A program made the translations under genes and the position numbers. From a virus (lineage: Duplodnaviria > Heunggongvirae > Uroviricota > Caudoviricetes), in IMG/VR virus record IMGVR_UViG_2681813271_000008: 33,148 nt of DNA. One strand, given 5' to 3'. The notes beneath the pieces were generated by a model. It was given only the letters and a program-made list of their open reading frames with translations, was not told the origin of the DNA and made no database searches. Shown here one piece after another: positions 1,449 to 18,093 of the stretch (positions within the stretch are counted from its first letter, which is position 1; each line of letters begins with the position of its first letter).

Positions 1449-2633
1449 ATGAGTGAAACTCGTTTTCATGGTGCCCGTGTTACGGAAAATACCGACCTGG
1501 TAACAGCGATTAACGATGTTGATTCCAGCGTTATCGGTATCGTGGCAACGGCGGATGATGCGGACGCGGAGCTGTTCCCGCTGAACAAGCCCACACTGCT
1601 GCCCCGCGTCAATGACGTGCTGGGAAAATGCGGAACAACGGGGACGCTTTATCGTGCGCTTAAGGCCATCGCAGACCAGGTGAGCACAAAGGTGATCGTC
1701 GTTCGCGTGGCTGAACACAAAGAAGAAGACGGAAAAACGCAGGATCAACTGGTTATCGGTGGTTCTGAATCTGACGGCAGCTATACGGGGATGTATGCGC
1801 TGCTTGTTGCAGAGCAGGATGAAAGCATCGGATACCGTCCGCGTATTCTGGCCGCGCCGGAGCTGGACACGGAGGCGGTGACAAAATCCCTGTGCGTGAT
1901 TGCGGGTAAACTGCGCGCGTTTGTGTATGCCTCATGTCATGACTGTAACACGATGGCTGAGGCAATTACCTACCGCCAGAAATTCAACGAACGTGAGGTG
2001 ATGCTCTTATGGCCGGACTTCATCGCCTACAACCCGAAAAGTGGCAAAAACGAAACGTTCCCCGCGCCTGCCTATGCGTGCGGCCTTCGTGCGTACATTG
2101 ACCATGAGCAGGGCTGGCACAAATCGCTGTCCAACGTTCCGGTTAAAAATGTGCTGGGGATGTCCAGGCATGTGTTCTGGTCGTTGCAGGCCGAAGACAG
2201 TGATGCCAACAGCCTCAACAACAAAGAAATCACGACCATTATTCGTCGCAACGGGTTCCGCTTCTGGGGCAACCGCACACCGGAAACGAACGCCTACATC
2301 TTTGAGGTGTATACCCGAACCGCACAGGTGCTGGCTGATTCAATTGCGGAAGCGCAGTTTGAAACCATCGACAGTCCACTGACGCCTGCGAACGTGAAGG
2401 ATGTTATCGGTGCCATCAGGGCAAAACTGGATTCACTGGTTACTGCCGGGAAACTGATTGGGGCGTCGTGCTGGTATGACGTGGTGGATAACGGCACCAC
2501 GAATTTACGTCAGGGGCGCGTGCGTATTCGCTACAAATATACGCCTGTTCCCCCGCTGGAAGACATGGAGCTTTACCAGTCGTTTACTGATGAATTCTTT
2601 GGTCCCGCATTTGCGGTGCTGGGAGGTGCCTGA
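1449..2633 (+). CDS. FI: Contractile tail sheath protein (P2 gpFI-like)
   Basis: 394 aa ORF, AAGGGG RBS upstream; length and position match P2 FI; followed by tube, chaperone and tape-measure genes. Confidence 0.85.
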   Translation: MSETRFHGARVTENTDLVTAINDVDSSVIGIVATADDADAELFPLNKPTLLPRVNDVLGKCGTTGTLYRALKAIADQVSTKVIVVRVAEHKEEDGKTQDQLVIGGSESDGSYTGMYALLVAEQDESIGYRPRILAAPELDTEAVTKSLCVIAGKLRAFVYASCHDCNTMAEAITYRQKFNEREVMLLWPDFIAYNPKSGKNETFPAPAYACGLRAYIDHEQGWHKSLSNVPVKNVLGMSRHVFWSLQAEDSDANSLNNKEITTIIRRNGFRFWGNRTPETNAYIFEVYTRTAQVLADSIAEAQFETIDSPLTPANVKDVIGAIRAKLDSLVTAGKLIGASCWYDVVDNGTTNLRQGRVRIRYKYTPVPPLEDMELYQSFTDEFFGPAFAVLGGA

Positions 2634-3145
2634 TGGCTGTACCAAAACATCTTCGCTTTTTTACGCTGTTTGTGGATGGTGAAAACGAAGTGGGTAAGGT
2701 GACGTCCGTCACTCTGCCTAAGCTGACGCGCAAAACCGACAGCTACCGGGGTGGTGGCATGATGGGAGCGGTAAGTATTGATCTCGGCCTGGATGACTCC
2801 GCGCTTGATGCGAGCTTTGTCATGGGGGGCGCAGTTCGTGAGCTGTTCCTTAAGTATGGCGGCACGATTGACGGTACGCTGCTGCGTTTTGCGGGTGAAT
2901 ACTACACCGACGCTGAAAGCGACCTGTATGAAGTCGAAATGCGCGGACGTGTGACGGAAATTGATATGGGGGAAGCCAAACAGGGCGAAGCCACATCACA
3001 CACTTACGCCATTAAAAACACCTACTACAAGCTGAGTGTTAACGATCGCCCGTTGTGGGAGATTGACCTGCTGAACTTCATTTACCGGAAGGACGGCAGG
3101 GACATTGTGCCCGATCGCATCCGTTCCGCGCTCGGGCTTGGCTGA
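2633..3145 (+). CDS. FII: Tail tube protein (P2 gpFII-like)
   Basis: 170 aa ORF; its ATG overlaps the FI stop (TGATG) and follows GGGAGG; size matches P2 FII. Confidence 0.85.
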   Translation: MAVPKHLRFFTLFVDGENEVGKVTSVTLPKLTRKTDSYRGGGMMGAVSIDLGLDDSALDASFVMGGAVRELFLKYGGTIDGTLLRFAGEYYTDAESDLYEVEMRGRVTEIDMGEAKQGEATSHTYAIKNTYYKLSVNDRPLWEIDLLNFIYRKDGRDIVPDRIRSALGLG

Positions 3146-3199
3146 TAAGTAATATGCAGGCGGCGCAGTGCGTCGCCTCTGACTGAAAGGAGTTTCCTG

Positions 3200-3565
3200 A
3201 TGAAAGAGACGAAAAACATCGATACCGAAAACACGGTCGTTGCTGACACTGTGAAAGAAACCAGTGAGCGTGGCGTAAAACTTACCCAACCAATTGAGCG
3301 AGGCGGCGAAAAAATCACGTATGTGGAGATCACCGGGGCTATTGAGCAGGCTGGATCTCTGCGAGATTTGTCGCTGTCTGATGTGCTGAATTTGAAAGCG
3401 GAATCCATGTTTACGCTGCTGTCACGCGTGACATCACCGCGACTGGATGAAGTGACGATCAAAAAAATGGCATCCCGTGACTTTATTCAGTTATGTGTGG
3501 TTGCCGTAAATTTTTTGAGCGGTGCGGACTCTGGCGAGAAGAACGAACAGGCGACGGAAGCCTGA
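3200..3565 (+). CDS. E: Tail assembly chaperone (P2 gpE-like)
   Basis: 121 aa ORF between tube and tape-measure genes; contains the slippery heptamer used for the E+E' product. Confidence 0.7.
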   Translation: MKETKNIDTENTVVADTVKETSERGVKLTQPIERGGEKITYVEITGAIEQAGSLRDLSLSDVLNLKAESMFTLLSRVTSPRLDEVTIKKMASRDFIQLCVVAVNFLSGADSGEKNEQATEA

Positions 3566-3729
3566 TCACGGTTGTGTGCTTTGAGCACATAGAAGACTTT
3601 GTGGCGGATATTGCCGCCATTTTTAACTGGTCGCCCGCCGAAATCTTCATGATGACGCCCGGCGAAGTGGTTAGCTGGCGTGAGCGGGCGGCACTTCGCA
3701 GCGGGAATGCAGACAATGAAGACTCTTGA
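3200..3729 (+). CDS. Tail assembly chaperone E+E' (predicted -1 programmed frameshift product)
   Basis: Slippery T_TTT_TTG at 3511..3517 sits in the E zero frame (codons TTT TTG); a -1 slip enters the 3493..3729 ORF, which ends just inside the tape-measure start. Analogous to P2 E/E'. Confidence 0.6.
3511..3517 (+). other. Slippery heptamer TTTTTTG for the E/E' -1 frameshift
   Basis: Heptamer read directly; it lies in the overlap between the E frame and the -1 frame ORF. Confidence 0.6.
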
Positions 3730-6523
3730 TATCCGGGTCGCTTTCAGCGCCGTTGACAGGCTGACCCGGCCTGCCGAAAACGCCCGCCGCCTGATGGGGC
3801 AGTTTGGTGACTCCATCCAGCGAACGCAGGGGGCGATCAAAAATCTCGAGCGTCAGGCGCGTTCATTTGAGCGCGCCCGTGACGCTGTCAGTAAAGCGGA
3901 TGCGGGCATCGTGAAAGCACGACGCCAGCTTAACGCCCTTAATCAGTTACAACGCACGGGTACAGTGCTCAGCGAAAAACAACAAAAGCTGATGCAGCAG
4001 TTAAGCACCCGGCTTGAACGCCTGAATGAATCGCGCACACGGGAAATTCAGAAAATGCGGGAACTTGGCGGAGAGCTGAAACGCCACGGCATTTCCCTGA
4101 CAGGCAGCGATAACACCATCCAGCAGGCCATCAGACGCACCGGACAATACAACAACCAGCTTGAACGCGAACGGCGGGCGCTTGCGCGTGTAACGCAGGC
4201 GCGTGAGCGGTATTCACGCGCGCAGGAAACAGCGGGAAAACTGAAAACAGGTGGTGCGCTGGCAACAGGTGCGGCGGCAGCGGGCGGCTATGCTGCCGGG
4301 CGTTTTTTGCAGCCCGCTATCGGGTTCGGGAAAGAGATGTCCCGTGTTCAGGCACTGACGCGAATCGATAAAAACAGCCCGCAGTTTAAGGCGCTGCGTG
4401 AGCAGGCGTTAAAACTTGGCTCTGAAACGCAGTTCACCGCAGGCGATGCCGCCAGTGGACAGGCATTTCTTGCAATGGCTGGTTTCACACCGCAGGCCAT
4501 TCAGGCTGCGCTTCCCGGCGTGCTGAGCATGGCAACGGCTGGCGGTATGGACCTCGGCGAGACGGCGGATATTGGTTCCAATATCCTGACGCAGTTCGGC
4601 CTCTCTGCTGACCAGATGGACCGGGTCGGTGACACACTTACCGCAGCGTTTACCCGTACCAACACTGACCTTCGCGCACTGGGCGAAACCATGAAATATG
4701 CAGGTCCGGTGGCGGGTAAGCTGGGAATATCGCTGGAGCAGGCCGCAGCGATGGCGGGCGTGCTGGCGAAGATGGGTATCAGGGGGAGTGATGCAGGTAC
4801 AGCGTTGCGTAAAAGCCTGGCCAATCTGTCATCACCGCCAAAGGCAGCGGCAGAAGCACTGAAAGAGCTGGGGGTGTCAGTTGCTGACGCCAAAGGCAAA
4901 ATGCGCCCGATGGAGAATGTGCTGGCCGATCTCTATAAAGCCACCCGCAAATACGGGGAGGTTGACCGGGTATCGTTCTTTAAGGACATTGCCGGAGAAG
5001 AGGCTTTCACATCATTTATGGGCCTCGTTGATGCGGCAGGTGACGGCTTCTTAGCCAAACTGAGAAAAGAACTTGAAGGCGCGCGCGGTGAGGCAGAACG
5101 CACGGCAAAGGTTATGGCCAATAACCTTGATGGCAACCTGAAATCACTCGGCAGTGCATGGGAAGGTCTGCGTATTCGCATCAGTGATCTGGTTGACGGT
5201 CCGCTGCGTTCTGTCACGCAGTGGCTCACGCGGGTTGTCTCAAAGGTGACGGCGCTGGCGCAGGCCCACCCGGCACTGACGCGCCAGTTACTGATAGCGG
5301 GAGGCGCACTGCTGGCGACAACAGCAACGGTTGGTTCGTTGTCTCTGGTTATTGGGGTGCTTCACGGGAAGCTGGCTACGTTGCGTCTCGGTTTTTCTCT
5401 CCTGACCGAATCAATGAATGTTGTCAGGGTTCTGCCTGCATTATGGGGAATGGTGACGGGTTCCGTTTCTTTACTTGGTGGCGCTATCGGGGCGCTGTTC
5501 AGTCCGGTTAGTCTTATCGTGGCTGCGCTTGCCGGAGCTGCCGTTCTTATCTGGAAATACTGGGATCCCATCAGGGCATTTTTTGCCGGGGTGTTCAGCG
5601 GGATTATGGAAAGGCTGACCCCGTTGCGCGAAACCTTTGAACGGTTTGGCCCTGTTTTTGATGTCGTGCGCGATGGGATTATTCAGGTCTTTAACTGGTT
5701 TAAATCGCTGCTGTCACCGATGGAGTCCAGCAAGGAAACGCTGGATAAATGTGCCAGTGCTGGCGAGATATTCGGTAACGTTCTTGGCGGTGCGTTACAA
5801 CTTGTTCTGACACCTGCAAAAATGCTACTGGATACGCTGGCGTGGATACTTGAAAAACTTGGCGTCCTTCCGGATGAAGCGGAAAGGGCGCGCAAGAAAA
5901 TCGAAGACGCACAGCGTGCGGCCATTCTTCAGGACAAGGTTGCCTTGCTTCAGGGGGACCTGGCGAAAATCAATCCGCCGAAGCCTGTGGAAAATGGCAA
6001 TGGCACCGGAGGTGATAAACCCAAAGACAACAAACCGCTCACAGACAGCAATACCGGGACGCTACGCAGACTCAGCAAAATTGCTGATAACACAGGTAAG
6101 CTGGTTGATGAGACGAAAAAACGCATTGGCCCCGGCGATATTGTCTTTAAGAACCTGCCCCGCGCACTTGCTGTTCGTGGGGAGTGGCAGGAGCGGAAGA
6201 TTGCGCAGGTCAGTAAGCCTGCCCCCGCAATTAATATCACACCCGTGGTCCCGGCTCCGCTGCCTCCGGCGCTGGTCCCTGTTGTTGCGGCCAGCTCCCG
6301 CCCGGTGGCGGAGGCCATACGCTCTCCAGTGGCATCAGTTCCTGTAACTTCCCGTAACCGGGAGCCTGTTGCCTCCGGATTTGGTGGTGAAATTCATGTT
6401 CATCTGCATAACGTTGTTACGCAGAATCCCCGCGAACTGGCGAAACTGGTCGGTGAAATGGTCAGGGCAGAAATGGAACGGCGCGCCCGTGCCGGGCGTG
6501 GCAGTTTTTACGATAAAGATTGA
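3716..6523 (+). CDS. T: Tail tape measure protein (P2 gpT-like)
   Basis: Long ORF (frame open from 3680), coiled-coil-rich N-terminus and Gly/Ala-rich hydrophobic central segments typical of tape-measure proteins. Start uncertain: ATG at 3707 or 3716, the latter has better GGGA spacing. Confidence 0.85.
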   Translation: MKTLDIRVAFSAVDRLTRPAENARRLMGQFGDSIQRTQGAIKNLERQARSFERARDAVSKADAGIVKARRQLNALNQLQRTGTVLSEKQQKLMQQLSTRLERLNESRTREIQKMRELGGELKRHGISLTGSDNTIQQAIRRTGQYNNQLERERRALARVTQARERYSRAQETAGKLKTGGALATGAAAAGGYAAGRFLQPAIGFGKEMSRVQALTRIDKNSPQFKALREQALKLGSETQFTAGDAASGQAFLAMAGFTPQAIQAALPGVLSMATAGGMDLGETADIGSNILTQFGLSADQMDRVGDTLTAAFTRTNTDLRALGETMKYAGPVAGKLGISLEQAAAMAGVLAKMGIRGSDAGTALRKSLANLSSPPKAAAEALKELGVSVADAKGKMRPMENVLADLYKATRKYGEVDRVSFFKDIAGEEAFTSFMGLVDAAGDGFLAKLRKELEGARGEAERTAKVMANNLDGNLKSLGSAWEGLRIRISDLVDGPLRSVTQWLTRVVSKVTALAQAHPALTRQLLIAGGALLATTATVGSLSLVIGVLHGKLATLRLGFSLLTESMNVVRVLPALWGMVTGSVSLLGGAIGALFSPVSLIVAALAGAAVLIWKYWDPIRAFFAGVFSGIMERLTPLRETFERFGPVFDVVRDGIIQVFNWFKSLLSPMESSKETLDKCASAGEIFGNVLGGALQLVLTPAKMLLDTLAWILEKLGVLPDEAERARKKIEDAQRAAILQDKVALLQGDLAKINPPKPVENGNGTGGDKPKDNKPLTDSNTGTLRRLSKIADNTGKLVDETKKRIGPGDIVFKNLPRALAVRGEWQERKIAQVSKPAPAINITPVVPAPLPPALVPVVAASSRPVAEAIRSPVASVPVTSRNREPVASGFGGEIHVHLHNVVTQNPRELAKLVGEMVRAEMERRARAGRGSFYDKD

Positions 6524-6529
6524 GGAGTC

Positions 6530-7024
6530 ATGGCCATGATGATGATCTACGGCATGTTTGTTTTTGAGCTGCGTACATTGCCGCATCAGCAGTTACAGCA
6601 AAACAAAAGCTGGCGGCATGTGAAAAATGAACGCGTTAACCGTTCGGCAAGCTGGCAGTATATCGGTGCAGGTGATGAGCGCATCGTTCTTTCTGGTGTG
6701 CTTTATCCTGAAATTACAGGTGGCGAAGTGTCGCTGTCGCTGCTGACCACGCAGGCGTATACAGGACGACCCTGGCCTCTGATTGATGGCGTCGGGCAGA
6801 TTTACGGCATGTATGTCCTGACCGAAACGAATACGACCCGCTCCGAGTTTGATCGCTACGGTAAGGCGAAAAAGATAGAATTTTCACTGACTCTTGAACG
6901 CTGTGATGAGGATTTGCGGGAGCGCCTGCAATCCTCATCGTTCAGCGATATGCTGTCCGGCTTCAAAGATAAGGTAACATCATCCCTTAACAGCGCGGCC
7001 AGTTCAGTTAAAGGGTTGTTCTGA
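6530..7024 (+). CDS. U: Tail protein U (P2 gpU-like)
   Basis: 164 aa ORF immediately after the tape measure; N-terminus MAMMMIYGMFVFELRTLP resembles P2 U. Confidence 0.8.
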   Translation: MAMMMIYGMFVFELRTLPHQQLQQNKSWRHVKNERVNRSASWQYIGAGDERIVLSGVLYPEITGGEVSLSLLTTQAYTGRPWPLIDGVGQIYGMYVLTETNTTRSEFDRYGKAKKIEFSLTLERCDEDLRERLQSSSFSDMLSGFKDKVTSSLNSAASSVKGLF

Positions 7025-7070: not shown

Positions 7071-7134
7071 CCTGACTCTTCTCTATTGTTCCGATTGATT
7101 CTCCTGCGGGGTGGTAACGATAAATCGTCGATAT

Positions 7135-7454
7135 NNNNNNNNNNNNNNNNNNNNNNNNNNNNNNNNNNNNNNNNNNNNNNNNNNNNNNNNNNNNNNNNNN
7201 NNNNNNNNNNNNNNNNNNNNNNNNNNNNNNNNNNNNNNNNNNNNNNNNNNNNNNNNNNNNNNNNNNNNNNNNNNNNNNNNNNNNNNNNNNNNNNNNNNNN
7301 NNNNNNNNNNNNNNNNNNNNNNNNNNNNNNNNNNNNNNNNNNNNNNNNNNNNNNNNNNNNNNNNNNNNNNNNNNNNNNNNNNNNNNNNNNNNNNNNNNNN
7401 NNNNNNNNNNNNNNNNNNNNNNNNNNNNNNNNNNNNNNNNNNNNNNNNNNNNNN
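7135..7454. other. Assembly gap (320 N) inside the invertase locus
   Basis: Run of N read directly. Confidence 1.
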
Positions 7455-7612
7455 ATTAATTCCTCGCTCCCGTAGTTCCCCGACGAGAGAAATCAGATGT
7501 TTCATGCTTCGCCCGAGGCGATCCAGTTTCCAGACAACCAGCGTGTCACCTTTTTGAAGGCGCTTTAAAGCGCGTTTTAATCCCGGTCGGTCTGTCTTTG
7601 TCCCGCTTAATT
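7455..7612 (-). CDS. Serine DNA invertase (Gin/Cin/Pin family), internal fragment between N-runs
   Basis: Translation [52 protein letters not shown] matches my recollection of Mu Gin residues about 34-85; flanked by N gaps on both sides. Confidence 0.8.
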
Positions 7613-7792
7613 NNNNNNNNNNNACGTGCTGCGGCATAATCCCAATGATTACTCCCTGACAGGGTTCGTAGGCCACTCAATATCAGGTGCAGTTGATGTA
7701 TCAACACGGTTCAGCAACACCCGATACTTTTTCTAGGCTTCCACCACCAGCACGACAAGATGCCGCATACAGTGACCCAGTCAGTCCAGTTT

Positions 7793-7975
7793 TCAGACAA
7801 CCAGTGCGTCACCTTTTTGAAGGCGCTTTAAAGCACGTTTTAATCCAGGTCGGCCTGTCCTTGTTCCGCTTAATTTATCTTCAAATATTTGTTCATATCC
7901 TGCACAAACAAGAGCGTTTCGTTGCAGGTCTGTATTCTGGTCATTTGTTGATACCCTTACATAGCCAATCAGCAC
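7793..7975 (-). CDS. Serine DNA invertase N-terminal fragment (catalytic-serine region), prematurely terminated
   Basis: From a GTG start after [65 protein letters not shown] then a stop; unrelated sequence follows. Confidence 0.8.
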   Translation of the reverse strand: MLIGYVRVSTNDQNTDLQRNALVCAGYEQIFEDKLSGTRTGRPGLKRALKRLQKGDALVV

Positions 7976-8029
7976 GCTGAATCTCCCGTCCAAAAGCGCA
8001 AATCATGCCATGCAGGCCGGAAACGGCCA

Positions 8030-8055
8030 TTATCTAAAACCTCGGTTTACAGGAA
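8030..8055. other. gix-like inversion crossover site (left)
   Basis: TTATCTAAAACCTCGGTTTACAGGAA closely resembles the Mu gix site as I recall it, and is an inverted copy of the site at 11452..11477. Confidence 0.75.
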
Positions 8056-9066
8056 ACGGTAAACAAGGCTGGTAACGCCGTGCAAAAAAATGGCGATACG
8101 TTGTCCGGTGGACTTACTTTTGAAAACGACTCAATCCTTGCCTGGATTCGAAATACTGACTGGGCAAAGATTGGGTTTAAAAATAATTCGGATGCAGACA
8201 CCGATTCCTACATGTGGTTTGAAACAGGCAACAACGGCAATGAATATTTCAAATGGAGACACCGCATCATTGGCACCCGGCCTAAAGACCTGATGAATCT
8301 TAAATGGAATGCTTTGTCTGTTCTTGTTGAAGCCCTTTTCAGCAGTGAAGTGAAAATATCGACAGTCAATGCACTGAGGATATTTAATTCATCTTTTGGT
8401 GCCATTTTTCGTCGTTCTGAAGAATGCCTGCATATCATCCCTACACGAGAGAATGAAGGGGAAAATGGTAATATAGGGCCACTACGCCCCTTTACGCTTA
8501 ATCTCAGAACTGGCCGGATAAGCATGGGGCATGGTCTTGATGTTACAGGGGATATATTTGCAAACCGTTTTGCAATTAACAGTAGTACCGGCATGTGGAT
8601 TCATATGCGTGACCAGAATGTTATTTTGGGACGTAATGCGGTATCCACTGATGGTGCTCAGGCTTTGCTCCGTCAGGACCATGCCGACCGCAAATTTATG
8701 ATTGGCGGTCTGGGAAATAAGCAATTTGGCATCTACATGATTAATAACTCAAGGACAGCCAATGGCACCGATGGTCAGGCGTACATGGATAATAACGGGA
8801 ACTGGCTTTGCGGCTCGCAAGTTATTCCCGGCAACTATGGCAATTTTGATTCCAGATATGTGAAAGATGTTCGACTTGGTTCACAGCAATATTATGGAGT
8901 GAACAACTGGCAAACATGGAATTTTCAGTGCCCGTCAGGCTATGTACTGACGGGGATTAACGTACAGGATACCGGAAAAAACTCTGCCGATAATATTGCA
9001 GGCGTTCATTACAGGCCAGTGCAAAAGTATATAAATGGCACTTGGTATAATGTGGCGAGTATTTAA
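8038..9066 (+). CDS. Alternative tail-fibre C-terminal (variable) cassette, promoterless, in-frame with the crossover site
   Basis: Frame is open from 8038 through the crossover core codons LGL; ORF track calls 8080..9066. Shares [13 protein letters not shown] and INGTWYNV motifs with the C-terminus of H. No independent N-terminal domain. Confidence 0.75.
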
Positions 9067-9488
9067 TATGATGCACTTAAAGAACATAAAAGCAGGTAAT
9101 GCTAAAACAGTGGAGCAGTATGAGTTAACAAAGAAGCACGGAGTCATCTGGCTTTACTCTGAGGACGGAAAAAACTGGTATGAGGAAGTGAAGAACTTTC
9201 AGCCAGACACAATAAAGATTGTTTACGATGCAAATAATATTATTGTCGCCATCACCAAAGATGCCTCCACGCTTAACCCTGAAGGTTATAGCGTCGTTGA
9301 GGTTCCTGATATTACAGCTAATCGTCGTGCTGATGATTCCGGTAAGTGGATGTTTAAGGACGGAGCTGTGGTTAAACGGATTTATACGGCTGACGAACAG
9401 CAACAACAGGCCGAATCACAAAAGGCCGCATTGCTTTCCGAAGCTGAATCAGTCATCCAGCCGCTGGAACGCGCTGTCAGGCTGAATA
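9035..9488 (+). CDS. Tail fibre assembly protein (Tfa / gpG-like), 3' end cut by an N-run
   Basis: About 75% identical to the next Tfa gene and similar to the minus-strand G; overlaps the end of the alternative fibre cassette. Confidence 0.75.
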
Positions 9489-9495
9489 NNNNNNN

Positions 9496-9978
9496 GAACA
9501 ATACCAGCTAACTAAAAAAGCGGGCGTGGTATGGCTCTTTTGCGAAGATGGCAAAAACTGGTATGAGGAACAAAAGAATTTTCAGCCAGACACCATAAAA
9601 ATTGCTTACGATGAGAACAACATCATCGTTGCTGTCAGTAAAGACGTTTCAACTATTAATCCTGAAGGGCTAAGCATAGTTGAAGTTCCTGATATTACGG
9701 CAAATCGTCACGCAGACAATAACGGAAAATGGATGTTTCTGGATGGTAAAGTAGTAAAGAGGGAATATACAGAACAGGAACTGCAACAACAGGCCGAATC
9801 ACAAAAGGCCGCATTGCTTTCCGAAGCTGAATCAGTCATCCAGCCGCTGGAACGCGCTGTCAGGCTGAATATGGCAACAGACGAGGAACGCACACGACTG
9901 GAAGCATGGGAACGCTACAGTGTTCTGGTCAGCCGTGTGGATACGGCAAATCCTGAATGGCCACAAAAGCCTGAATAA
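9496..9978 (+). CDS. Second tail fibre assembly protein (Tfa), 5' end lost in an N-run
   Basis: Frame open from the gap ([15 protein letters not shown]...); the ORF track's GTG at 9526 is internal. Shares an identical stretch of about 88 bp with the 3' end of the previous Tfa. Confidence 0.75.
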
Positions 9979-9983
9979 AAATT

Positions 9984-10003
9984 AAGGCCCGATAGCGGGC
10001 CTT
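9984..10003. terminator. Hairpin between convergent Tfa genes (likely bidirectional terminator)
   Basis: AAGGCCCG ATAG CGGGCCTT perfect 8-bp stem; T-rich run follows on the minus strand. Confidence 0.5.
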
Positions 10004-10006
10004 CTC

Positions 10007-10540
10007 TCATTCTGGTTGTTCGGGAAACGTTACTGGCAGGCTGGAGGTGTCTGTGGATTCAACCTTCTGCGCATAGAGCATCCACTCGGTTAATTTTTGT
10101 TTATTCTCATCGGAAATGATGCCCAGCTGTAGCTGAGAGTCCCACAGCTGGGTTTTATCCCTGACGAGCTGCAGCAGGCTCTGCTTTTCATTTTCCGCTT
10201 GTTGCCTTTGCTCTTCCTCGGTATAAGTTCGCTTTATCACCGCACCATCTTTGAACATCCAGTTGCCCGAAATATCAGCCCGGCGATTTGCTGTAATATC
10301 AGGCAACTCAACGACACTTAAACCTTCTGGATTAATTGCTGATACATCCTTGTCTATAGCAATAATTATTCCCTCAACTGTGTAAGCCAGTTTTATTGTA
10401 TCCTCCTGAAAGTTTTTTAATTCCTCATGCCAATTTTTTCCATCTTCGGACCATAACCAGATAACATCAAAATTCTTTGTTAGCTGGTATTGTTCAACGG
10501 TTTTTGGATTACCTGCGACAATGTTTTTTAAATGCTGCAT
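10007..10540 (-). CDS. G: Tail fibre assembly protein G (P2 gpG-like)
   Basis: 177 aa ORF directly downstream of the tail-fibre gene; homologous to the plus-strand Tfa ORFs. Confidence 0.8.
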
Positions 10541-10542
10541 GA

Positions 10543-10692
10543 TTATACCTGCGATACGTTATACCATGTTCCGTTAATTAACTTTTGTATTGGTCTGAAT
10601 ACTGCCGGATCATCACCATCGACTTCACCGATAATACCAAGCCCCGTGATTACATGGCCTGATTTTTCATACATCACGCCTTTCTTCATGGT
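10543..10692 (-). other. In-frame continuation of tail fibre H beyond an amber codon (49 codons, conserved C-terminus)
   Basis: Same frame as H after the TAG at 10693..10695: [49 protein letters not shown], then TAA 2 nt before the G start. Aligns with the C-terminus of the alternative cassette. Confidence 0.6.
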
Positions 10693-12477
10693 CTAAACAA
10701 CTCGTGTGCCAAGTCTGACATCTCTCACATAGCGGGAATCAAAGTTACCGTAATCCGAGGGATTAACACGTCCCGTAATATTTATGGTTTTATTACTTTG
10801 AATGCTTCCGGAGACAAAGCGCATAACATGGACGTTATTAGCATAAACATCCAGATTACCATCGCCTTTTTGTTTAAAGCCCGTGTCATTATCACCCAAT
10901 ACAATCGAATTACCGCCAAGAGCACTGGATGTTCCGATACCCAGTGCACCATTCAGTTGACCACCAGATAACGGCAGTGCACCAACATCTCCTGCTGAAG
11001 GTTTTCTGGTGGTGTAAAATTCGGACCAGTCGGCTTCAAAACCATAACCATCACGGGCTGAACGATAAAAAATACCGCCATTTTTATAATTAATCCGAAA
11101 CTGAGCTGCAGGACAACTTCCTTCTCCCATATAAAAATGAATAATTAACGTTGATGCACCACTAATAGTTGCGTTATAGGCTCCGCTACTCCAGTTCCAT
11201 CCAACTGCTTTATCATTCGCAACGGTGCTTCCTGTTTTCCCTAAGGCAAACGCACCAACATGACTTGCTTTTAATGTGATATCGGAGGAACCATCAAAAG
11301 CCACATTGCTTATTTTCCTGGCAGTTTTTAATTTTGCAGCTGTAGAAGCATTGCCGGATAGTTCACCAGAAAGGCCACCGCTGAATGTTTGTCGATTAGT
11401 CCAGGTATTCGCTGTACTGAGTAACGGTATTTTCTCCCCGCTTGTGCCGAGTTCTCGTAAACCGAGGTATTCGATAACGGCAGCAACGGTCGATTTCGCA
11501 AGAATATCCCGCCCGACTTTTGTCAGGGTTGCCAGGCTGGCGACATCATTCCCCGTAAAATACGGAAACTTGCCTGCCGCAGTAGTAAGTCCGGCCAGCG
11601 CCGTCAGGGTGGCATCTTTCGGTTGCTTACCCGCAAGCGCGTTAGTCATGGTGGTCGCAAAATTCGGGTCGTTGCCCAGCGCCGCCGCCAGCTCGTTCAG
11701 TGTGTTCAGTGCATCAGGCGAAGAGTCTACAAGTGCGGCAATCGCAGCCATAACGAAAGCCGTGCTTGCGATTTGGGTATTATTCGTTCCCTGTCGCGCA
11801 GTTGGTGTTGTTGGCGTTCCGGTCAGTGCCGGGCTGTTTAATGGGGCTTTCTTGTTCGTTTCATCCATTACTGCCTTAACGGCTTTTGGTGTCGCTGCCA
11901 GCGTTTCAGACGTGCTGTTGGTGGCGTTGCTGAGCTGGACAAGGCCTTTTGCGGTCAGCGAGGCGTCCGGGTGACGTCGTGACTGTTCATGCTCTTTCAG
12001 TTTGTCATCCACGTAATTCACTGTGGCCATCACCATGGTGTTATCCACGGTAAGCGCCACAGTGGCAGTGCTGGATACGGTCAGAATGGTGCGAAATGTT
12101 TGTGCACGTCCGGATCCTTCGGCAACGGTTGGCTTGTAACTTTCGGCAGTATTGCCTACCGCGATCAAATCGCCGTGCTCATCAAACACACCAATTTCCC
12201 GGATCCAGAATCCGCCCGTTTCAGGAGGAATAACCAGCTCCGCAATAATGTGGTTCTGATGTGTTGCGTCCAGGGTGACGCGATTAACGGTATGTCGCCA
12301 CACCTCATGCACAAGACGGGTCTGCTTACTGTCTGGCGTGGGTAAAGTACCGCCGCCGTCACCCACGGCCATATGTGTCAGGCGGACAGGTTTCCCATCT
12401 GGCGCGGTTGCCTGCGCTAATTTTTTTGCACCCGTATCGGTGATAATGGTTTTAAATTTTCGTGTTGTGGTACTCAT
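10693..12477 (-). CDS. H: Tail fibre protein H (P2 gpH-like), interrupted by an in-frame amber codon
   Basis: 594 aa ORF. Constant N-terminal part runs from 12477 to the crossover site near 11452..11477 (EYLGL); variable part follows. Stop TAG at 10693..10695 lies inside a conserved C-terminal region. Confidence 0.85.
   Translation of the reverse strand: MSTTTRKFKTIITDTGAKKLAQATAPDGKPVRLTHMAVGDGGGTLPTPDSKQTRLVHEVWRHTVNRVTLDATHQNHIIAELVIPPETGGFWIREIGVFDEHGDLIAVGNTAESYKPTVAEGSGRAQTFRTILTVSSTATVALTVDNTMVMATVNYVDDKLKEHEQSRRHPDASLTAKGLVQLSNATNSTSETLAATPKAVKAVMDETNKKAPLNSPALTGTPTTPTARQGTNNTQIASTAFVMAAIAALVDSSPDALNTLNELAAALGNDPNFATTMTNALAGKQPKDATLTALAGLTTAAGKFPYFTGNDVASLATLTKVGRDILAKSTVAAVIEYLGLRELGTSGEKIPLLSTANTWTNRQTFSGGLSGELSGNASTAAKLKTARKISNVAFDGSSDITLKASHVGAFALGKTGSTVANDKAVGWNWSSGAYNATISGASTLIIHFYMGEGSCPAAQFRINYKNGGIFYRSARDGYGFEADWSEFYTTRKPSAGDVGALPLSGGQLNGALGIGTSSALGGNSIVLGDNDTGFKQKGDGNLDVYANNVHVMRFVSGSIQSNKTINITGRVNPSDYGNFDSRYVRDVRLGTRVV
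11452..11477. other. gix-like inversion crossover site (right, inside H)
   Basis: Reverse complement TTATCGAATACCTCGGTTTACGAGAA matches the 8030..8055 site at 22 of 26 positions; the core CTC GGT TTA encodes LGL in the H frame and in the alternative cassette frame. Confidence 0.75.
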
Positions 12478-12479
12478 GC

Positions 12480-13010
12480 TTAATCGTCCGGATAAATGGT
12501 AATGACTTCACCGTCGTAAGTTGCTGCTGCCGCGAAAATATCTCCCTGAATCTCCTGAATGATATTCAGCCCTGTCATGTGGCGGCTGACCGGGCGGGCA
12601 TCAGCAATCAACCGCTCCATTTCCAGATACATTTCCTCCGTCACGCCACTGTCCAGCGTGCCAACATCAATCTTGAATGTTCCGGGTTCGCCGTTGAACT
12701 CCCACCACTCAGACACGCGAATGAGGTATCCCAGCGGCTCAATGGCCCGTCGCAGGGCGCTGATGGTTCCTTTGTGTCGGTGTATCAGCCATGCATCACG
12801 AATCACCTGTCGCTTTGTCTCTTCCGGCCAGTTGCGATCCCAGCGGTCAACGGAAAACGCCCAGGCGAGATAAGGCAGCAGATGCACCGGGCAGGTGTCC
12901 GGCGACCACAGCGTGTTGAGGTCTGCCGGAATGTCTGTAATGCGTGTTCCGACGGCTTCGGCACAACGCATGAAATTGCTGGCTGATGGTGGTAACAGTG
13001 AATTACTCAT
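12480..13010 (-). CDS. I: Baseplate/tail-fibre attachment protein I (P2 gpI-like)
   Basis: Start at ATG 13008..13010 (MSNSLLPP) preceded by GGTGG, 2 nt after the J stop; 176 aa, the same length as P2 I. Confidence 0.85.
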   Translation of the reverse strand: MSNSLLPPSASNFMRCAEAVGTRITDIPADLNTLWSPDTCPVHLLPYLAWAFSVDRWDRNWPEETKRQVIRDAWLIHRHKGTISALRRAIEPLGYLIRVSEWWEFNGEPGTFKIDVGTLDSGVTEEMYLEMERLIADARPVSRHMTGLNIIQEIQGDIFAAAATYDGEVITIYPDD

Positions 13011-13899
13011 TACGCCCACCTTCGCTGATGGTGAATGACTCACAGCGCGCCGCCTGTATGTCGCTGATGGCCATATTCTGTGTGGGTTCGATTATCTCCA
13101 CGCGTTGCACACCGTGCACATGCAGTGCGGCAGCAATGGCGGACAACGCCACGTCCTGACCGATAAGCCCCTGCTCAGCCAGCCACTTCCTGAACGACGA
13201 TTCAGCCGCAGCCAGAATAGGTTCGGATTCCGGACCGGGGTAAAAGTACAGTTTTGCATTCAGCCGCCATGTCACGATTCTGGCACTCTGTACGGTCAGG
13301 CGGTCGGCCACCGGGCGGGTATCCTCTGCATTCAGAACGGCGCGAACGGTATTAAGCAACGCCTCCGTTGCTGTGCCGTCGCCCTCAGTGGACAGGATGG
13401 AAACCGTCACATTTGCCGGAGACGGACTGATGGCCCGCGCATCGCGCACCAGACCGCTGGCGCTGCGGGCAAAATACTCGTATGCGCCTGACGGGCCTGC
13501 AACACTCAGGCCGTCATACGCCCGCTGCGCCCGCAGTCTCAGCGAGGTGTCGTTCTCCATCACCACGTCGGTGGTATCCGTTGCCGGAGTGATAACCAGG
13601 CGCTTTGTGTTCATATTGCCCGCGAGGTTGTCCAGGTCTGTTCCGGCGCTGTGGCTCAACATGCAGGCGCGTGCGGCCTCATTGACCCGCTGGCGTAACA
13701 GCATTTCACGAAACGACATGGTTTGAGCGATAACGTTCAGGGGTTCCGATTCCAGTTCCAGTGCGGCGGAGACGACTTCACGCTGTTCGGCGGGATAAGC
13801 TGCAATCATCATGGCCTTTGTGTCAGCCAGAATTGCCTCAAAGTCAGGCTCCGCGATGATGGCGGGTTCCGGTAACTGGGAAAGGTCAACGGCAGGCAT
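13003..13899 (-). CDS. J: Baseplate assembly protein J (P2 gpJ-like)
   Basis: 298 aa ORF in the V-W-J-I order. Confidence 0.85.
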   Translation of the reverse strand: MPAVDLSQLPEPAIIAEPDFEAILADTKAMMIAAYPAEQREVVSAALELESEPLNVIAQTMSFREMLLRQRVNEAARACMLSHSAGTDLDNLAGNMNTKRLVITPATDTTDVVMENDTSLRLRAQRAYDGLSVAGPSGAYEYFARSASGLVRDARAISPSPANVTVSILSTEGDGTATEALLNTVRAVLNAEDTRPVADRLTVQSARIVTWRLNAKLYFYPGPESEPILAAAESSFRKWLAEQGLIGQDVALSAIAAALHVHGVQRVEIIEPTQNMAISDIQAARCESFTISEGGRNE

Positions 13900-13902
13900 G
13901 AT

Positions 13903-14253
13903 TTACTCCCTCAGCGTGATGGTTAATTCAACATTCTGCATGGTCTGCATGACAGTGCCCGACAGCGTCACCCCGGCGTGGCCTCCTGCCTTCCAGACAA
14001 CGTCGATGGCGTTCAGGGCAATGCGTGGTTCCCATCGTGTCAGTGCAATCACGGTAGCACTCATGCATTGCAGACGCGTGGTGTTATTCATGGGTTCGTC
14101 AATCAAATCAGGCACAAGGCTGCCATATTCCCGTCGCATAACCCGGCTTGCCAGCGGGGTGGTCAGGATGTCCCTGACTGACTGTTTCAGGTGCGCCATA
14201 TCGTTCAGGTTTCCCGTCCCGTCCGGGTTCATTCCTGTGTAGCGGGTTGTCAC
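13903..14253 (-). CDS. W: Baseplate assembly protein W (P2 gpW-like)
   Basis: 116 aa ORF between V and J. Confidence 0.85.
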   Translation of the reverse strand: MTTRYTGMNPDGTGNLNDMAHLKQSVRDILTTPLASRVMRREYGSLVPDLIDEPMNNTTRLQCMSATVIALTRWEPRIALNAIDVVWKAGGHAGVTLSGTVMQTMQNVELTITLRE

Positions 14254-14831
14254 TGCGGGCCTCCTGTCGAATCGCTGCCACCTTTAACGCCACCGTGCTT
14301 ATGCGTATGCACTGTGATGCCGTTTGAGGTGAAATCGCCGCCGCTGTGCGTGATATTGCCGCTCATCGTTCCCCCTTTTGTGACGTCAAGCGTCGCTGTT
14401 CTCAGAAGGTCTGTGCATTCCACGACAGGCGTGTTCAGTGTCACGCTGATGGATGCCTGCAAAGTGGCCGTTTTCATGCCGCTTGCGCTCAGTGCGCCTG
14501 CGTCCGCGTCGTAGCGGAACACCGCGCCGTCCGGCGCGCTGACCACGATTTCTTTCAGGCTTTTGCCGGGTGCCGGAATGGCATCACTCCACAGGCTGCC
14601 GATTATCATGGCGGTTTCCGGGTTGCCGCCGATGCAGGCAATTGCCACCTGTTCGCCTGGTGATGGCGGAAACCACACGTTGAAGTCTCCCGCGCGCGTG
14701 GTGTTCCAGCGCAGCCAGCCTGTTTCCAGTTCGCCGCTGCGAACGCGCACGCACCAGGATTCCTCATCAACTTCAGAGATGATCCCGGTGCGGATGATAT
14801 TGCTCAGCAGTCGCATGAGTTCTGCGCTCAT
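14250..14831 (-). CDS. V: Baseplate spike protein V (P2 gpV-like)
   Basis: 193 aa; motifs IRTGII, GEQV, FPDGAV, KGGTM.GNI.H.GG and HTHKH match my recollection of P2 V. Confidence 0.85.
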   Translation of the reverse strand: MSAELMRLLSNIIRTGIISEVDEESWCVRVRSGELETGWLRWNTTRAGDFNVWFPPSPGEQVAIACIGGNPETAMIIGSLWSDAIPAPGKSLKEIVVSAPDGAVFRYDADAGALSASGMKTATLQASISVTLNTPVVECTDLLRTATLDVTKGGTMSGNITHSGGDFTSNGITVHTHKHGGVKGGSDSTGGPQ

Positions 14832-15463
14832 CGTACAGCCTCCGCAATCCGGCCCAGCACCGTGTTATAAATCAGGCGCTCATCTGCCTGGCTGATACCC
14901 AGCAGCTCACGTACCGGGTAATCGGTGAAAATGCCCGGCGCAACCTGATCGCGCTCACCGAACTGATGAACGCGTGCAATACGTGCGGCCACGCCGCTGT
15001 AACCCACCGTCACACCGGAAGCATCTGCACGGGCTTTCAGGTAGCGGGCGGTGCGCAGTTTTACGAACATGGAGACGCGCCTGGTGCTGTCCTGGTTGAT
15101 GCGCCGGGTGCGTATTTCCAGAAAACGGTCGATGTCATCCCGGTAAAACGTGCGGATATTGTTTTTATCCTCATCCCACCCGGTGATGGTTCGCCCGTAT
15201 TTCCCCGTGTCGTGATGCCAGTTTTTCAGCGTGCGTGCTTCGTTATTCCAGATAAAGCGAATGCGCTCCTGTATCCGGGTTACGCGGCGTCTGCGTGGTG
15301 TCCATGCGGTCCCGTCCGGCGCTTTCTGTGACCGGATACGCGCCTGCTGGGCGCGGCGTAAATCCTGTGCCAGCTTTCTGGCGATGTTATTAATGGCCTG
15401 CTGATTCAGGCTGTCGCGGATAGCCTCAAAGGTTTCATCCACGCGGGTGAATGCCTTATCCAT
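14828..15463 (-). CDS. S: Tail completion / virion morphogenesis protein (gpS position)
   Basis: 211 aa ORF between R and V, overlapping both; longer than P2 S (150 aa), so called by position. Confidence 0.6.
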   Translation of the reverse strand: MDKAFTRVDETFEAIRDSLNQQAINNIARKLAQDLRRAQQARIRSQKAPDGTAWTPRRRRVTRIQERIRFIWNNEARTLKNWHHDTGKYGRTITGWDEDKNNIRTFYRDDIDRFLEIRTRRINQDSTRRVSMFVKLRTARYLKARADASGVTVGYSGVAARIARVHQFGERDQVAPGIFTDYPVRELLGISQADERLIYNTVLGRIAEAVR

Positions 15464-15923
15464 CGCTTTCCCCCCACGTCACATCCTGGAATACATGCGA
15501 CCAGTCGCCTTCGGAAGAGGGCAGGCGGGGTTTTGGCTCCGGCAGGTGTTCTGCCTGCGGTGTGCCCTGACTGCTGCGCGTGATGCGAACGCGTTCCCGC
15601 AGGGGGAGCGTAAACAGGAGATCGGCGCTGTCATCGTCATTGATAACGGCGGAAAATTTGATGTCCTGATTACGCTCCGGATTGAGCAACAACTGTGGCT
15701 GATTTTCGGATAACCACGCCAGCAGCGGCAGCGTGAGGTCGTCCAGCTCTCCGGCGTAATCCATGACAAACATCACTATCTGATAGCGGTAAACAAACGA
15801 TGGGGTTTCTCCGGTCGTTTCAATGTTGCCGCTCTCCACGAAAATGGTGAATTTTTCCGGGTTGGCATGACACCACCGGCATGAACGGGTCATGGCTTCA
15901 CGCAGGGAATCAGTTTTCAGCAT
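15456..15923 (-). CDS. R: Tail completion protein R (P2 gpR-like)
   Basis: 155 aa, the same length as P2 R; located after the lysis genes and before S. Confidence 0.65.
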   Translation of the reverse strand: MLKTDSLREAMTRSCRWCHANPEKFTIFVESGNIETTGETPSFVYRYQIVMFVMDYAGELDDLTLPLLAWLSENQPQLLLNPERNQDIKFSAVINDDDSADLLFTLPLRERVRITRSSQGTPQAEHLPEPKPRLPSSEGDWSHVFQDVTWGESDG

Positions 15924-16200
15924 GGTTGTTGTCCTCGTTGTTCAGTCGTTGCAGCCTGCGCTGTTCCAGTAATTCAATGGCCCGCTTATCGGCGTTACAG
16001 GTTTCCAGTGCGTCCATGAGGCTGTCGCTCCATATCCCGATGTTTCCCCATGATGGCGTCACCGGAAACGGCGGGGGAAGTACGGGGGCGGTCAGCCCTT
16101 CCGGGATGAAACGGAACGACGGCGGCGGCGCGGACGCGTTCTGCGTGCTGGTGCAACCGCTCAGTAAAGCGAGCGTCAGGAACAGCGCGGGCACATGCAT
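15910..16200 (-). CDS. Outer-membrane spanin lipoprotein (Rz1 / LysC-like)
   Basis: Signal peptide with lipobox LLSGC, proline-rich mature part; starts inside the i-spanin ORF in another frame and extends past its stop. Confidence 0.6.
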   Translation of the reverse strand: MHVPALFLTLALLSGCTSTQNASAPPPSFRFIPEGLTAPVLPPPFPVTPSWGNIGIWSDSLMDALETCNADKRAIELLEQRRLQRLNNEDNNHAEN

Positions 16201-16468
16201 CTGTCGTGATATCGTTGCGTAGCTGTTCACGTCGGATTTCCCCTTCCTGTTGTCGGTTCTGGCGCGCTGTCATGACGTCACGCAGTACACCGGATGCGGT
16301 GCTGATGATGGTGCCGGCCTCTTTCAGGGTCCGGCTGTAATCGTCCAGTTGCGCCTGTGTATAACGGTTGTGTCCGTCTTCCTGCCCCAGTCTGAATGTC
16401 TGCCAGAGTGTTATGGTCAGCAGCGTGAGGACGGTCAGTGCCATCATCAGGATGTAACGCACTTTCAT
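15995..16468 (-). CDS. Inner-membrane spanin (Rz / LysB-like)
   Basis: N-terminal transmembrane helix (ILMMALTVLTLLTITLW) followed by a charged, helical periplasmic domain; downstream of the endolysin. Confidence 0.65.
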   Translation of the reverse strand: MKVRYILMMALTVLTLLTITLWQTFRLGQEDGHNRYTQAQLDDYSRTLKEAGTIISTASGVLRDVMTARQNRQQEGEIRREQLRNDITTDACARAVPDARFTERLHQHAERVRAAAVVPFHPGRADRPRTSPAVSGDAIMGKHRDMERQPHGRTGNL

Positions 16469-16553
16469 GACTGGCCTCCGGTGTCACGTAAGCACCATGC
16501 ACGAAAATCAGTACGACGGTTAACCAGTCCCTGTGAGCGTTCGCCGCCGCTGT

Positions 16554-17009
16554 TCACGAAGTCAGTCTGTTGCACATGTCAGGCCAGTTGTGCGCCTGTG
16601 CATGTTTCCAGATAGTGGTGCGGTGGTAGTTACGGTTCTTATCCCTGAACCACATAAGATTTCTGCATCCAAGATTAAAGGCGGCATCTGTCATTGCCTC
16701 AAACGCGGACTGTGGCATGGCGTTGCCGCTGAAGTTCTGATTTATGCAGTTTTCTGCATGTTGCATATCATTAACCCAGCGCCCGGCGACTTCCGTTTCG
16801 GTGTACAGACGATTTTCCACATGCCCGGTCGAGCCGCACCCCACGGTCATTACCCCGGCAATATCCCGGTAAGGCGTTGCGCGACAGTCCTCCCATGTGG
16901 CAATGCGGATTTGCGCTTCCGGGCTGGTCCGGAGTTTGTGAGGGGCAATGGAGAACCCCAGCGCCACAATGGCGGCTACGGCGTAACGTTTAACGGGCAG
17001 CTTTATCAT
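16554..17009 (-). CDS. K: SAR endolysin (phage lysozyme, T4-lysozyme-type)
   Basis: Catalytic pattern E-x8-D-x5-T visible in WEDCRATPYRDIAGVMTVGCG; N-terminal hydrophobic signal-anchor-release-like segment AVAAIVALGFSIA. Confidence 0.75.
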   Translation of the reverse strand: MIKLPVKRYAVAAIVALGFSIAPHKLRTSPEAQIRIATWEDCRATPYRDIAGVMTVGCGSTGHVENRLYTETEVAGRWVNDMQHAENCINQNFSGNAMPQSAFEAMTDAAFNLGCRNLMWFRDKNRNYHRTTIWKHAQAHNWPDMCNRLTS

Positions 17010-17292
17010 GTGTATCGTTATCCCGCAGAATGTTCAGAGCCTGACGCTCACTGTCGTGAAGTGGCCGTGCGTCTGACTGCGCCAGGATACTGGCGATGAG
17101 TTCATTGCGACGCTGCATGGCGGTTTCCATCAGGCGGCGATGTCGCCAGGCATGTAATGCAGACAGAGAACCGAGTAACAACCCGGCAAGGGCGATTTTT
17201 TCACTGATGGTCATCACGCCTATTGTGGTGGCTGTGACTGATGCCCAGAAGGTGATCCAGTCACTCACCCGCAGAAAAAAACCTGTTACCAT
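16990..17292 (-). CDS. Y: Holin (probable pinholin partner of the SAR endolysin)
   Basis: About 100 aa from the ATG at 17292; two predicted transmembrane segments; stop overlaps the endolysin start. The ORF track's longer version (to 17499) overlaps X. Confidence 0.6.
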   Translation of the reverse strand: MVTGFFLRVSDWITFWASVTATTIGVMTISEKIALAGLLLGSLSALHAWRHRRLMETAMQRRNELIASILAQSDARPLHDSERQALNILRDNDTHDKAAR

Positions 17293-17483
17293 AGCTGTAT
17301 CATCTCTCGTTGTTTTTTCTTCTCCGGCTCCGGCATTTCCACCTCCTGTCCGGCTTCCAGAAATACCTGTCGGCAGAGTCCGGGGTTGGCATCCAGCACC
17401 TTTTCGGTGACGCCCTGCGTCGTGCCGTAGTACCGGAAACAGAGCGAATCCACGGTGTCGCCTTCCAGTGTCTTCACTTTCAT
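17286..17483 (-). CDS. X: Tail protein X (P2 gpX-like)
   Basis: 66 aa from MKVKTLEGDTVDSL, close to P2 X (67 aa); sits between L and the holin. Confidence 0.7.
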   Translation of the reverse strand: MKVKTLEGDTVDSLCFRYYGTTQGVTEKVLDANPGLCRQVFLEAGQEVEMPEPEKKKQREMIQLW

Positions 17484-17986
17484 CAGCACAACTCCGCAAA
17501 GATTCGCGGGCGGCACAGAATGTCAGAGATGGCCCAGCTCACATCGCGCCACAAATCCGATGTCTGTATATCCAGTGCGTCCGCCCGGCGGTCGCCCTTG
17601 TCCGTTGTGTCCGCATCGCGGTAACGCTCCAGAATCAGGGCGCGTGTGGCGGTATAAACAGCATTGCGCCAGTGCCAGAGATTGACGCTTTCTCCGTTAA
17701 TTACAGGTGCCGGAACATCGGCCAGCGTCTGATGGCCAGCCGCCTGCTGTTCCTGCTGCCATGCTTCCAGCTCGCGGGTAACGTGTGCCACGGCCCCGGT
17801 GGCGGTATGCAGCAGGCGGGAGGTGGTCACGCGGCCCGGCAGTCGTACCGCCAGACGCAGCTCGCGCAGCACAATATCCGGCCAGAATGCACCCGCTGAA
17901 ATACGGGTATCGCCATCTTCGGTGTCGGTGATGTCGTCCTCTGCGGGTCCGGGTTCAGTTCTGGCAACCATACTCATGGGGTTCAC
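17483..17986 (-). CDS. L: Head completion protein L (P2 gpL-like)
   Basis: 167 aa ORF following M in the capsid order. Confidence 0.7.
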   Translation of the reverse strand: MNPMSMVARTEPGPAEDDITDTEDGDTRISAGAFWPDIVLRELRLAVRLPGRVTTSRLLHTATGAVAHVTRELEAWQQEQQAAGHQTLADVPAPVINGESVNLWHWRNAVYTATRALILERYRDADTTDKGDRRADALDIQTSDLWRDVSWAISDILCRPRIFAELC

Positions 17987-18019
17987 TCCTGAAAAAATCG
18001 GGCGGTGGGTGCGCGGTGT

Positions 18020-18093
18020 NNNNNNNNNNNNNNNNNNNNNNNNNNNNNNNNNNNNNNNNNNNNNNNNNNNNNNNNNNNNNNNNNNNNNNNNNN
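18020..18093. other. Assembly gap (74 N) between L and M
   Basis: Run of N read directly. Confidence 1.

Follow-up and report, generated by a model that had tools for sequence, protein, structure and literature searches.

In the window, which is the whole stretch of 33,148 nucleotides analyzed in this study, tail-fibre gene H of a P2-like (Peduovirus-type) prophage is closed by an in-frame amber codon shortly before its conserved 3' end. The explanation that we consider likely is a heritable CAG-to-TAG change in the stf cassette of a decayed Shigella sonnei prophage, which has probably been mis-assembled onto the P2-like H. In particular, the attachment of the TAG cassette to H is probably a chimera generated in assembly, scaffolding or gap closing. 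The window, in which the prophage is read mostly on the minus strand, has the sequence of contig CXCM01000025.1 of GCA_001256555.1, a gapped short-read draft scaffold, and the six runs of N that interrupt it (7135–7454, 7613–7623, 9489–9495, 18020–18093, 21268–21720 and 27013–27026) are present in the public record itself.

The amber codon and the orphaned 3' end of the fibre cassette

Gene H starts at an ATG at 12477 on the minus strand, and its coding sequence (12477..10696) specifies 594 amino acids ending in DVRLGTRVV, directly before the TAG at 10695..10693, which arose by nonsense mutation from an ancestral CAG (Gln). Past the TAG, the H frame stays open for 49 sense codons up to a TAA at 10545..10543, which is followed by two nucleotides (TC) and the ATG of gene G at 10540; this arrangement is correct in every detail given in the preliminary description, which had been made from the sequence alone. 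The orphaned 3' end (10692..10543, minus strand) also holds a 48-aa ORF, starting at the ATG at 10689, 3 nt after the TAG. Because 49 consecutive open codons are expected by chance with a probability of approximately (61/64)^49 = 0.1, the open frame is by itself weak evidence for a continuation of the gene, and the decision falls to homology. Over 43 residues, the 49-residue tail shares 47% identity with the C-terminal end of the alternative cassette (8080..9066; E = 2e-10), bearing out the likeness that had been proposed between the two ends, and an alignment that included 40 upstream residues gave E = 5e-19. Moreover, the tail is 100% identical to the same stretch in uninterrupted fibre genes elsewhere. 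The crystal structures of phage Mu fibre protein S can be aligned with the H frame across the stop and up to their own C-termini (residues 424–502 of 504 in 5yvq_A and 422–486 of 488 in 8ju3_A), the part beyond the TAG matching their final ~50 residues.

The Mu chaperone Tfa attaches to the fibre's distal part (PMC9608196). By analogy, the region of Mu gpS that matches the lost residues would be the distal fibre tip, the place where Tfa docks, and loss of the 49–50 C-terminal residues would be expected to abolish both folding of the tip and receptor binding. Judging from the sequence, the truncated fibre is probably non-functional. Genes for fibres of the P2 gpH type are uninterrupted ORFs that reach the INGTWYNV ending just before tfa and have a cognate assembly gene immediately downstream. 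In the window the TAG closes the ORF 49 codons too early, while G (10007..10540, minus strand), a tail-fibre assembly (chaperone) gene matching PF02413 (E = 4.8e-34), lies immediately downstream. When the stop was repaired in silico, H matched PF12571 (E = 2.3e-54) and PF03406 (E = 1.7e-20), both of which are also precomputed for the 594-aa product.

Ancestral codon and spread of the TAG allele

Two uninterrupted homologues came closest, a fibre gene of Escherichia coli NCTC86 (98.9% identical in nucleotides) and gene H of Yersinia phage L-413C (87.6%). Both carry CAG (Gln) at the position of the stop and run on to the same TAA before tfa, and one C>T transition separates the two codons. When IMG/VR was scanned for the exact pattern with either C or T at the codon, 14 loci were returned, 6 with TAG and 8 with CAG. 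CAG cassettes exist (L012 and L013) that are 99.8–99.9% identical to the window cassette. The comparison with intact homologues that had been recommended for finding the ancestral codon thus gives CAG, Gln, in NCTC86, in L-413C and in all 8 of these IMG/VR loci.

The distribution of the allele was evaluated in several collections. The 61-mer containing the TAG had no exact match in any of 5426 complete E. coli genomes, and the exact-pattern scan with C or T allowed gave no match in a contig collection holding one genome per species, where not even the window's own cassette was found. A 258-nt query spanning the stop matched 88 records of a phage collection, and in 55 of these the match covered at least 80% of the query's length; the records listed have a single annotated feature under the match, which is 'tail fibre protein' where it is named. 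In the protein collection, the 48-aa ORF is entered as 'putative tail fiber protein (GpH) [Shigella sonnei]', and the 594-aa H product likewise bears an S. sonnei name. At least 1000 contigs and 2201 index blocks with S. sonnei names carry the 48-aa ORF, among them chromosomes of 4.8–5.0 Mb. The TAG allele is therefore genuine and inherited, and it is all but confined to S. sonnei.

We found no prior description specific to the S. sonnei TAG lesion in a literature search. It is an ordinary pseudogene allele, whose small ORF is already annotated in public records, and it has the marks of a nonsense pseudogene, namely a one-base change relative to near-identical CAG copies, homology beyond the stop, restriction to one lineage and the presence of further lesions. 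Selection on the 49 downstream codons could be assessed with no statistical power, since the copies are 99.8–100% identical.

The invertible segment and its invertase

The cassette that bears the TAG is one half of an invertible segment bounded by an inverted pair of 26-bp gix/cix-like sites, as in switches of the Gin/Cin/Pin type. The right site lies at 11452..11477, where the minus strand reads TTATCGAATACCTCGGTTTACGAGAA, and the left site at 8030..8055 reads TTATCTAAAACCTCGGTTTACAGGAA. Between the right site and the TAG lies the variable fibre part (10696..11451, minus strand), which is of the lambdoid type, and outside the site lies the constant N-terminal part of H with its tail-collar domain and fibre repeat (11686..12477, minus strand), which is of the P2 type and 99.5% identical to closed-genome P2-like prophages. 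The opposed, alternative cassette (8056..9488, plus strand) is the native P2-type one; it consists of the fibre part Hv' (8080..9066, 328 aa) and the first ~140 codons of its tfa (from 9068), and is 99.9% identical to the closed genomes L034 and L031. A second tfa gene, of the lambdoid type, is represented by its C-terminal ~150 codons (9496..9978, plus strand) and is interrupted by a scaffold gap.

Inverting the segment in silico between the two gix centres gave an uninterrupted H of 678 aa, which is identical at 676 of 678 residues to that of the closed genome L030; the claim that the alternative orientation is intact was thereby confirmed, the other cassette joining in frame. Fusion in frame to either cassette also occurs in nature in both orientations, as H of 656 and 678 aa and Stf of 875 and 918 aa in closed genomes.

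The invertase gene in the window is mostly N, and what can be read of it is only fragments between the gaps and a truncated lambdoid pin'. The P2-type serine invertase fragments (7083–7134 and 7455–7612, within 7083..7623, minus strand) are 100% identical to closed genomes, where the protein has 195 aa. In the adjoining lambdoid remnant (7624..7896, minus strand), the pin' ORF (7993..7793) breaks off at 66 aa, and a C-terminal tfa remnant comes next; the same pin'/tfa remnant is annotated in the NCTC86 record. In relatives of the P2-like prophage the invertase is intact at 195–201 aa, and the intact copy in the independent draft L015 matches PF00239 and PF02796. In the Gin and Hin systems, the Fis-dependent recombinational enhancer lies in the invertase gene.

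The TAG cassette resides in a decayed lambdoid prophage of S. sonnei

In 10 long or closed S. sonnei records, the TAG cassette with its 48-aa ORF was located in a lambdoid prophage remnant beside the trp operon, where its neighbours are trpA, IS1 and IS3-family copies, a methyltransferase gene and a ~60-aa resolvase fragment. The J gene at this locus is broken into two ORFs, and an IS has taken the place of the stf constant part in several strains. In most of the 10 records the TAG cassette stands next to the truncated invertase, that is, in the unexpressed orientation. In CP044151.1 (L027), the cassette is joined to stf and yields an 875-aa product ending at the TAG, while in the other orientation stf encodes 918 aa (L023, L025 and L028). 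Exact protein matches put the 875-aa Stf on 72 contigs, and for the 918-aa Stf the number is 277; since both forms are found, the segment has flipped within S. sonnei. The invertase at this native locus is truncated to 60–66 aa, so flipping there probably relies on an invertase supplied in trans, in which case the occurrence of both orientations would illustrate, on a small scale, how inversion acts in trans in nature.

When the window was set against L027, whose segment is turned the same way, there were 0 mismatches over 9496–11685 and one homopolymer indel at 9601; G, too, lies within this block and is of the lambdoid-locus type. The assignment of the TAG cassette to gene H in the preliminary description is consequently probably wrong, as these positions are a lambdoid stf cassette with one indel, and closed genomes carrying the P2-like prophage have an H of 656 or 678 aa. 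Both loci can be seen on one chromosome in CP044191.1, where an intact P2 H of 656 aa (L034) is accompanied by the lambdoid TAG cassette (L028) elsewhere. The proposed dependence of the fibre on orientation holds in part: one orientation is truncated and the other is not (875 versus 918 aa), but at the lambdoid locus and not at P2 H.

We propose that the CAG>TAG change hit one of the two C-terminal cassettes between which an invertible stf gene alternates. With the TAG cassette joined to stf, translation would stop 49 codons early and give the 875-aa product, whereas after a flip of the segment stf would read into the other cassette and give 918 aa. The mutation would represent a neutral step of gene decay devoid of any recoding signal, because the native prophage is degraded and the cassette is usually unexpressed there. 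In the window, assembly, scaffolding or gap closing most likely crossed from the P2-like H into the lambdoid stf inside a 77-bp stretch that is identical in both.

The window scaffold switches between two prophages

In closed genomes with an identical gpI, the layout is I, H, tfa, opposed tfa, opposed fibre cassette, 195-aa invertase and U; H has 656 or 678 aa, the two cassettes are intact, and the TAG cassette is never present. Some of the closed-genome P2-like prophages carry added IS elements. The window was compared with closed or long P2-like and lambdoid records by BLAST, and its best match alternated between the two prophages. The P2-like prophage was the best match at 13010–11457 (99.5%), 9488–8034 (99.9%) and 7612–7455 and 7134–6900 (100%). 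The lambdoid locus matched at 11481–9496 (99.85%) and 8050–7624 (99.3%), and the former of these stretches matched the P2 prophage's own cassette in parts only, at 70–87%. The first paralog switch lies within 11609..11685, 77 bp that are identical in the P2-type and lambdoid-type constant regions: all 7 informative sites at 11482–11608 are of the lambdoid type, and all from 11686 upward are of the P2 type. The second lies within 7897..7997, 101 bp that are identical in both paralogs in the N-terminal coding region of the invertase, with 95 informative sites of the lambdoid type at 7624–7896 and 33 of the P2 type at 7998–8138. Site-specific recombination at gix was considered as the origin of these P2/lambdoid junctions and is disfavoured, because neither switch is at a gix core (they lie 130–210 bp and 33–133 bp outside gix) and both are inside exact repeats.

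The N runs disclosed further inconsistencies. The flanks of the 7-N run at 9489..9495 overlap in homologous tfa coordinates, P2-type tfa aa 1–140 abutting lambdoid-type tfa aa ~25–175, and across 7613–7623 lambdoid pin' aa 1–66 with the tfa remnant abuts P2 invertase aa ~34–85. Such abutments cannot belong to one molecule. In addition, the native second cassette of the 656 type is missing from the window scaffold. A comparable case was observed in L015, in which a whole lambdoid contig has been placed between the P2 invertase-gix end and the P2 H by joins at single Ns (5233 and 10309) with homologous coordinates duplicated, showing that scaffolders confuse the P2-like and lambdoid loci at exactly these repeats. 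The 594-aa fusion H was found on only 2 contigs, both drafts of 20–50 kb. Switches inside exact repeats, inconsistent abutments across N gaps and the lack of any closed genome with the join are together what an assembly chimera leaves behind, and they point to the join being an artefact.

The principal alternative is that the join is real and arose by homologous recombination between the P2-like H and the lambdoid stf within the 77-bp identical stretch, and that the fibre of a P2-like prophage is truncated in one orientation and intact at 678 aa in the other. We regard this as unlikely, although part of the evidence agrees with it. The junction between the P2-type constant part and the TAG cassette is gap-free both in the window (9496–18019) and in a second assembly, FUDN01000043.1 (L018, no N), with 2 mismatches in 3515 bp between the two, and a crossover in the 77-bp stretch would give an identical gap-free sequence. 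In a further locus (L010), a constant region, a gix site and the TAG cassette occur with 0 mismatches; an intact invertase exists in the P2-like prophage family, and the simulated flip restores the 678-aa H. However, the fusion is confined to 2 contigs, against 1250 index blocks with gpI, and no closed genome with identical gpI shows it. The lambdoid pin'/tfa remnants abut P2 invertase fragments across N gaps in a way that is impossible for one molecule, the single lambdoid pin' flank would need one partner in L018 and another in the window, and L015 joins the same two loci artificially. The full scenario, in which a real exchange onto an intact P2-like prophage created a switch between tip-less and complete fibres and the cryptic segment, whose own invertase is truncated, was flipped in trans by the P2-like invertase, is a shade less probable again. 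Should the join be real, a nonsense-bearing receptor-binding cassette would have moved from a cryptic lambdoid prophage to an intact P2-like one.

Readthrough and base-call error

It is also conceivable that the fibre stays functional, either by readthrough or suppression of the TAG or by re-initiation at the 48-aa ORF, whose product would complement the truncated fibre. Every TAG copy has kept the 49 codons beyond the stop undamaged, and an ATG directly follows the stop, but intact codons are to be expected anyway because the copies are 99.8–100% identical, and no obvious Shine-Dalgarno sequence was seen before the ATG on inspection of the sequence. A programmed readthrough site would have a conserved stop, whereas CAG stands at this position in NCTC86, L-413C and the 8 IMG/VR loci; since the stop is absent from relatives outside S. 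sonnei, it is no conserved recoding site. A tRNA scan found no tRNA gene in the window that could supply a suppressor, and in most of the closed genomes shown the cassette is unexpressed inside a decayed prophage. We consider this explanation very improbable. Of the preliminary statement that the fibre is truncated unless the codon is suppressed, the truncation stands, and the need for suppression falls away with a stop that is not conserved outside S. sonnei and a window that holds no tRNA gene. A base-call or consensus error in a single assembly, which might be suspected in a draft short-read scaffold with six N runs, has next to no likelihood and is not supported, because the TAG recurs in 6 IMG/VR loci and on at least 1000 S. 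sonnei contigs, closed chromosomes included.

Comparison with known fibre switches and significance

The segment resembles the invertible fibre segments of Mu (G segment, S/U versus S'/U', Gin), P1 (C segment, Cin), e14 (P segment, Pin) and Shigella boydii (pinB/B segment). As in those segments, inverted 26-bp sites of the gix/cix type bound the segment here, a serine invertase gene lies next to it (in the window, as fragments), the constant N-terminal part of the fibre joins in frame with whichever of two opposed C-terminal cassettes is turned towards it, and each cassette comes with its own Tfa chaperone. The C-terminal sequence of the cassette is homologous to Mu S and P1 S. In Mu, one fibre is expressed at a time (PMC11821841). 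Unlike the segments of Mu, P1 and e14, one cassette here carries a nonsense codon, and the invertase of the native lambdoid locus is cut to 60–66 aa. Compared with H-G of Yersinia phage L-413C (Peduovirus), the cassette is 87.6% identical in nucleotides and has the same protein end, with tfa following a few nucleotides later, but H of L-413C is an uninterrupted ORF with CAG at the codon and is found without an inversion system.

Hendrix and Duda are said to have described in 1992 a frameshift in stf of the laboratory phage lambda PaPa. In both cases, a lambdoid stf is inactivated by a point lesion and the downstream coding sequence and tfa are still recognisable; unlike that frameshift, the nonsense codon described here is fixed in a natural clonal pathogen and lies inside an invertible cassette.

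Gene decay is a known trait of the Shigella sonnei lineage, and a further prophage pseudogene there has little biological weight, although the TAG allele could serve as a simple marker of the lineage. The wider message is one of caution: when invertible fibre segments of co-resident prophages share long exact repeats, short-read assembly and scaffolding thread them wrongly, so junction features in such segments need confirmation from closed genomes or at the level of reads.

The FI-U block, which is convergent with H-G and divergent from D, was also considered as an invertase-linked rearrangement. This idea was rejected, the order being normal in the P2-like group; the D/FI junction recurs, at 95–99% identity, in 1356 complete E. 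coli genomes.

Inversion of the lambdoid stf segment

Across Shigella sonnei assemblies, the invertible stf segment of the lambdoid prophage was seen in both orientations, and Stf of 875 and 918 aa was found in 72 and 277 contigs, respectively. In closed S. sonnei chromosomes (L020–L029), the invertase gene adjoining this segment was cut to 60–66 aa, and the same truncated-invertase remnant lies at 7793–7993 of the window. Since the segment's own invertase is truncated, these results imply that flipping relies on an invertase provided in trans; a possible source is the P2-like prophage with its 195-aa enzyme. The homologous lambdoid stf of E. coli NCTC86 (L002, 3157–5961) retains CAG and is annotated as split into an N-terminal pseudogene and a 442-aa 'tail fiber protein', and the invertase at this locus is likewise truncated; the locus is decaying independently in NCTC86 through other lesions.

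Regarding the P2-like prophage, some closed genomes (L034 / L031: CP044191.1, CP032523.1) bear an IS3-family element between the alternative opposed cassette Hv' and the invertase gene, at a position equivalent to window ~8034–8040, inside or beside the left gix site. Inversion is probably disabled in the IS-carrying strains. In these closed genomes, a second IS copy shortens the fibre-assembly gene tfa from 177 to 137 aa.

Scaffold gaps and a chimeric viral record

The public scaffold record itself contains six N runs (7135–7454, 7613–7623, 9489–9495, 18020–18093, 21268–21720 and 27013–27026), three of which fall within the invertase and invertible region and one of which interrupts the terminase gene; the pieces flanking the first three runs have overlapping homologous coordinates. 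L015, an IMG/VR viral contig derived from an isolate genome, is itself a chimeric public 'viral genome', in which single-N joins at 5233 and 10309 splice the lambdoid locus (methyltransferase, the truncated invertase gene pin', both cassettes and a portion of stf) into the P2-like prophage.

Lysozyme gene and gene order

The phage lysozyme ORF (16554–17009, minus strand) encodes 151 aa, whereas its counterpart in the nearly identical FUDN01000043.1 prophage encodes 182 aa, and the two frames part after codon ~150 (window ~16559). The divergence would fit a 1-nt indel, which may be either a genuine frameshift or an error in a homopolymer.

Set against each other, the blocks 182–7024 and 10007–16000 show the FI-FII-E-T-U tail operon running towards H-G and away from D, an arrangement that differs from the gene order of P2. 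The same D/FI junction was found in 1356 complete E. coli genomes, indicating that this layout is standard for a widespread P2-like prophage group.
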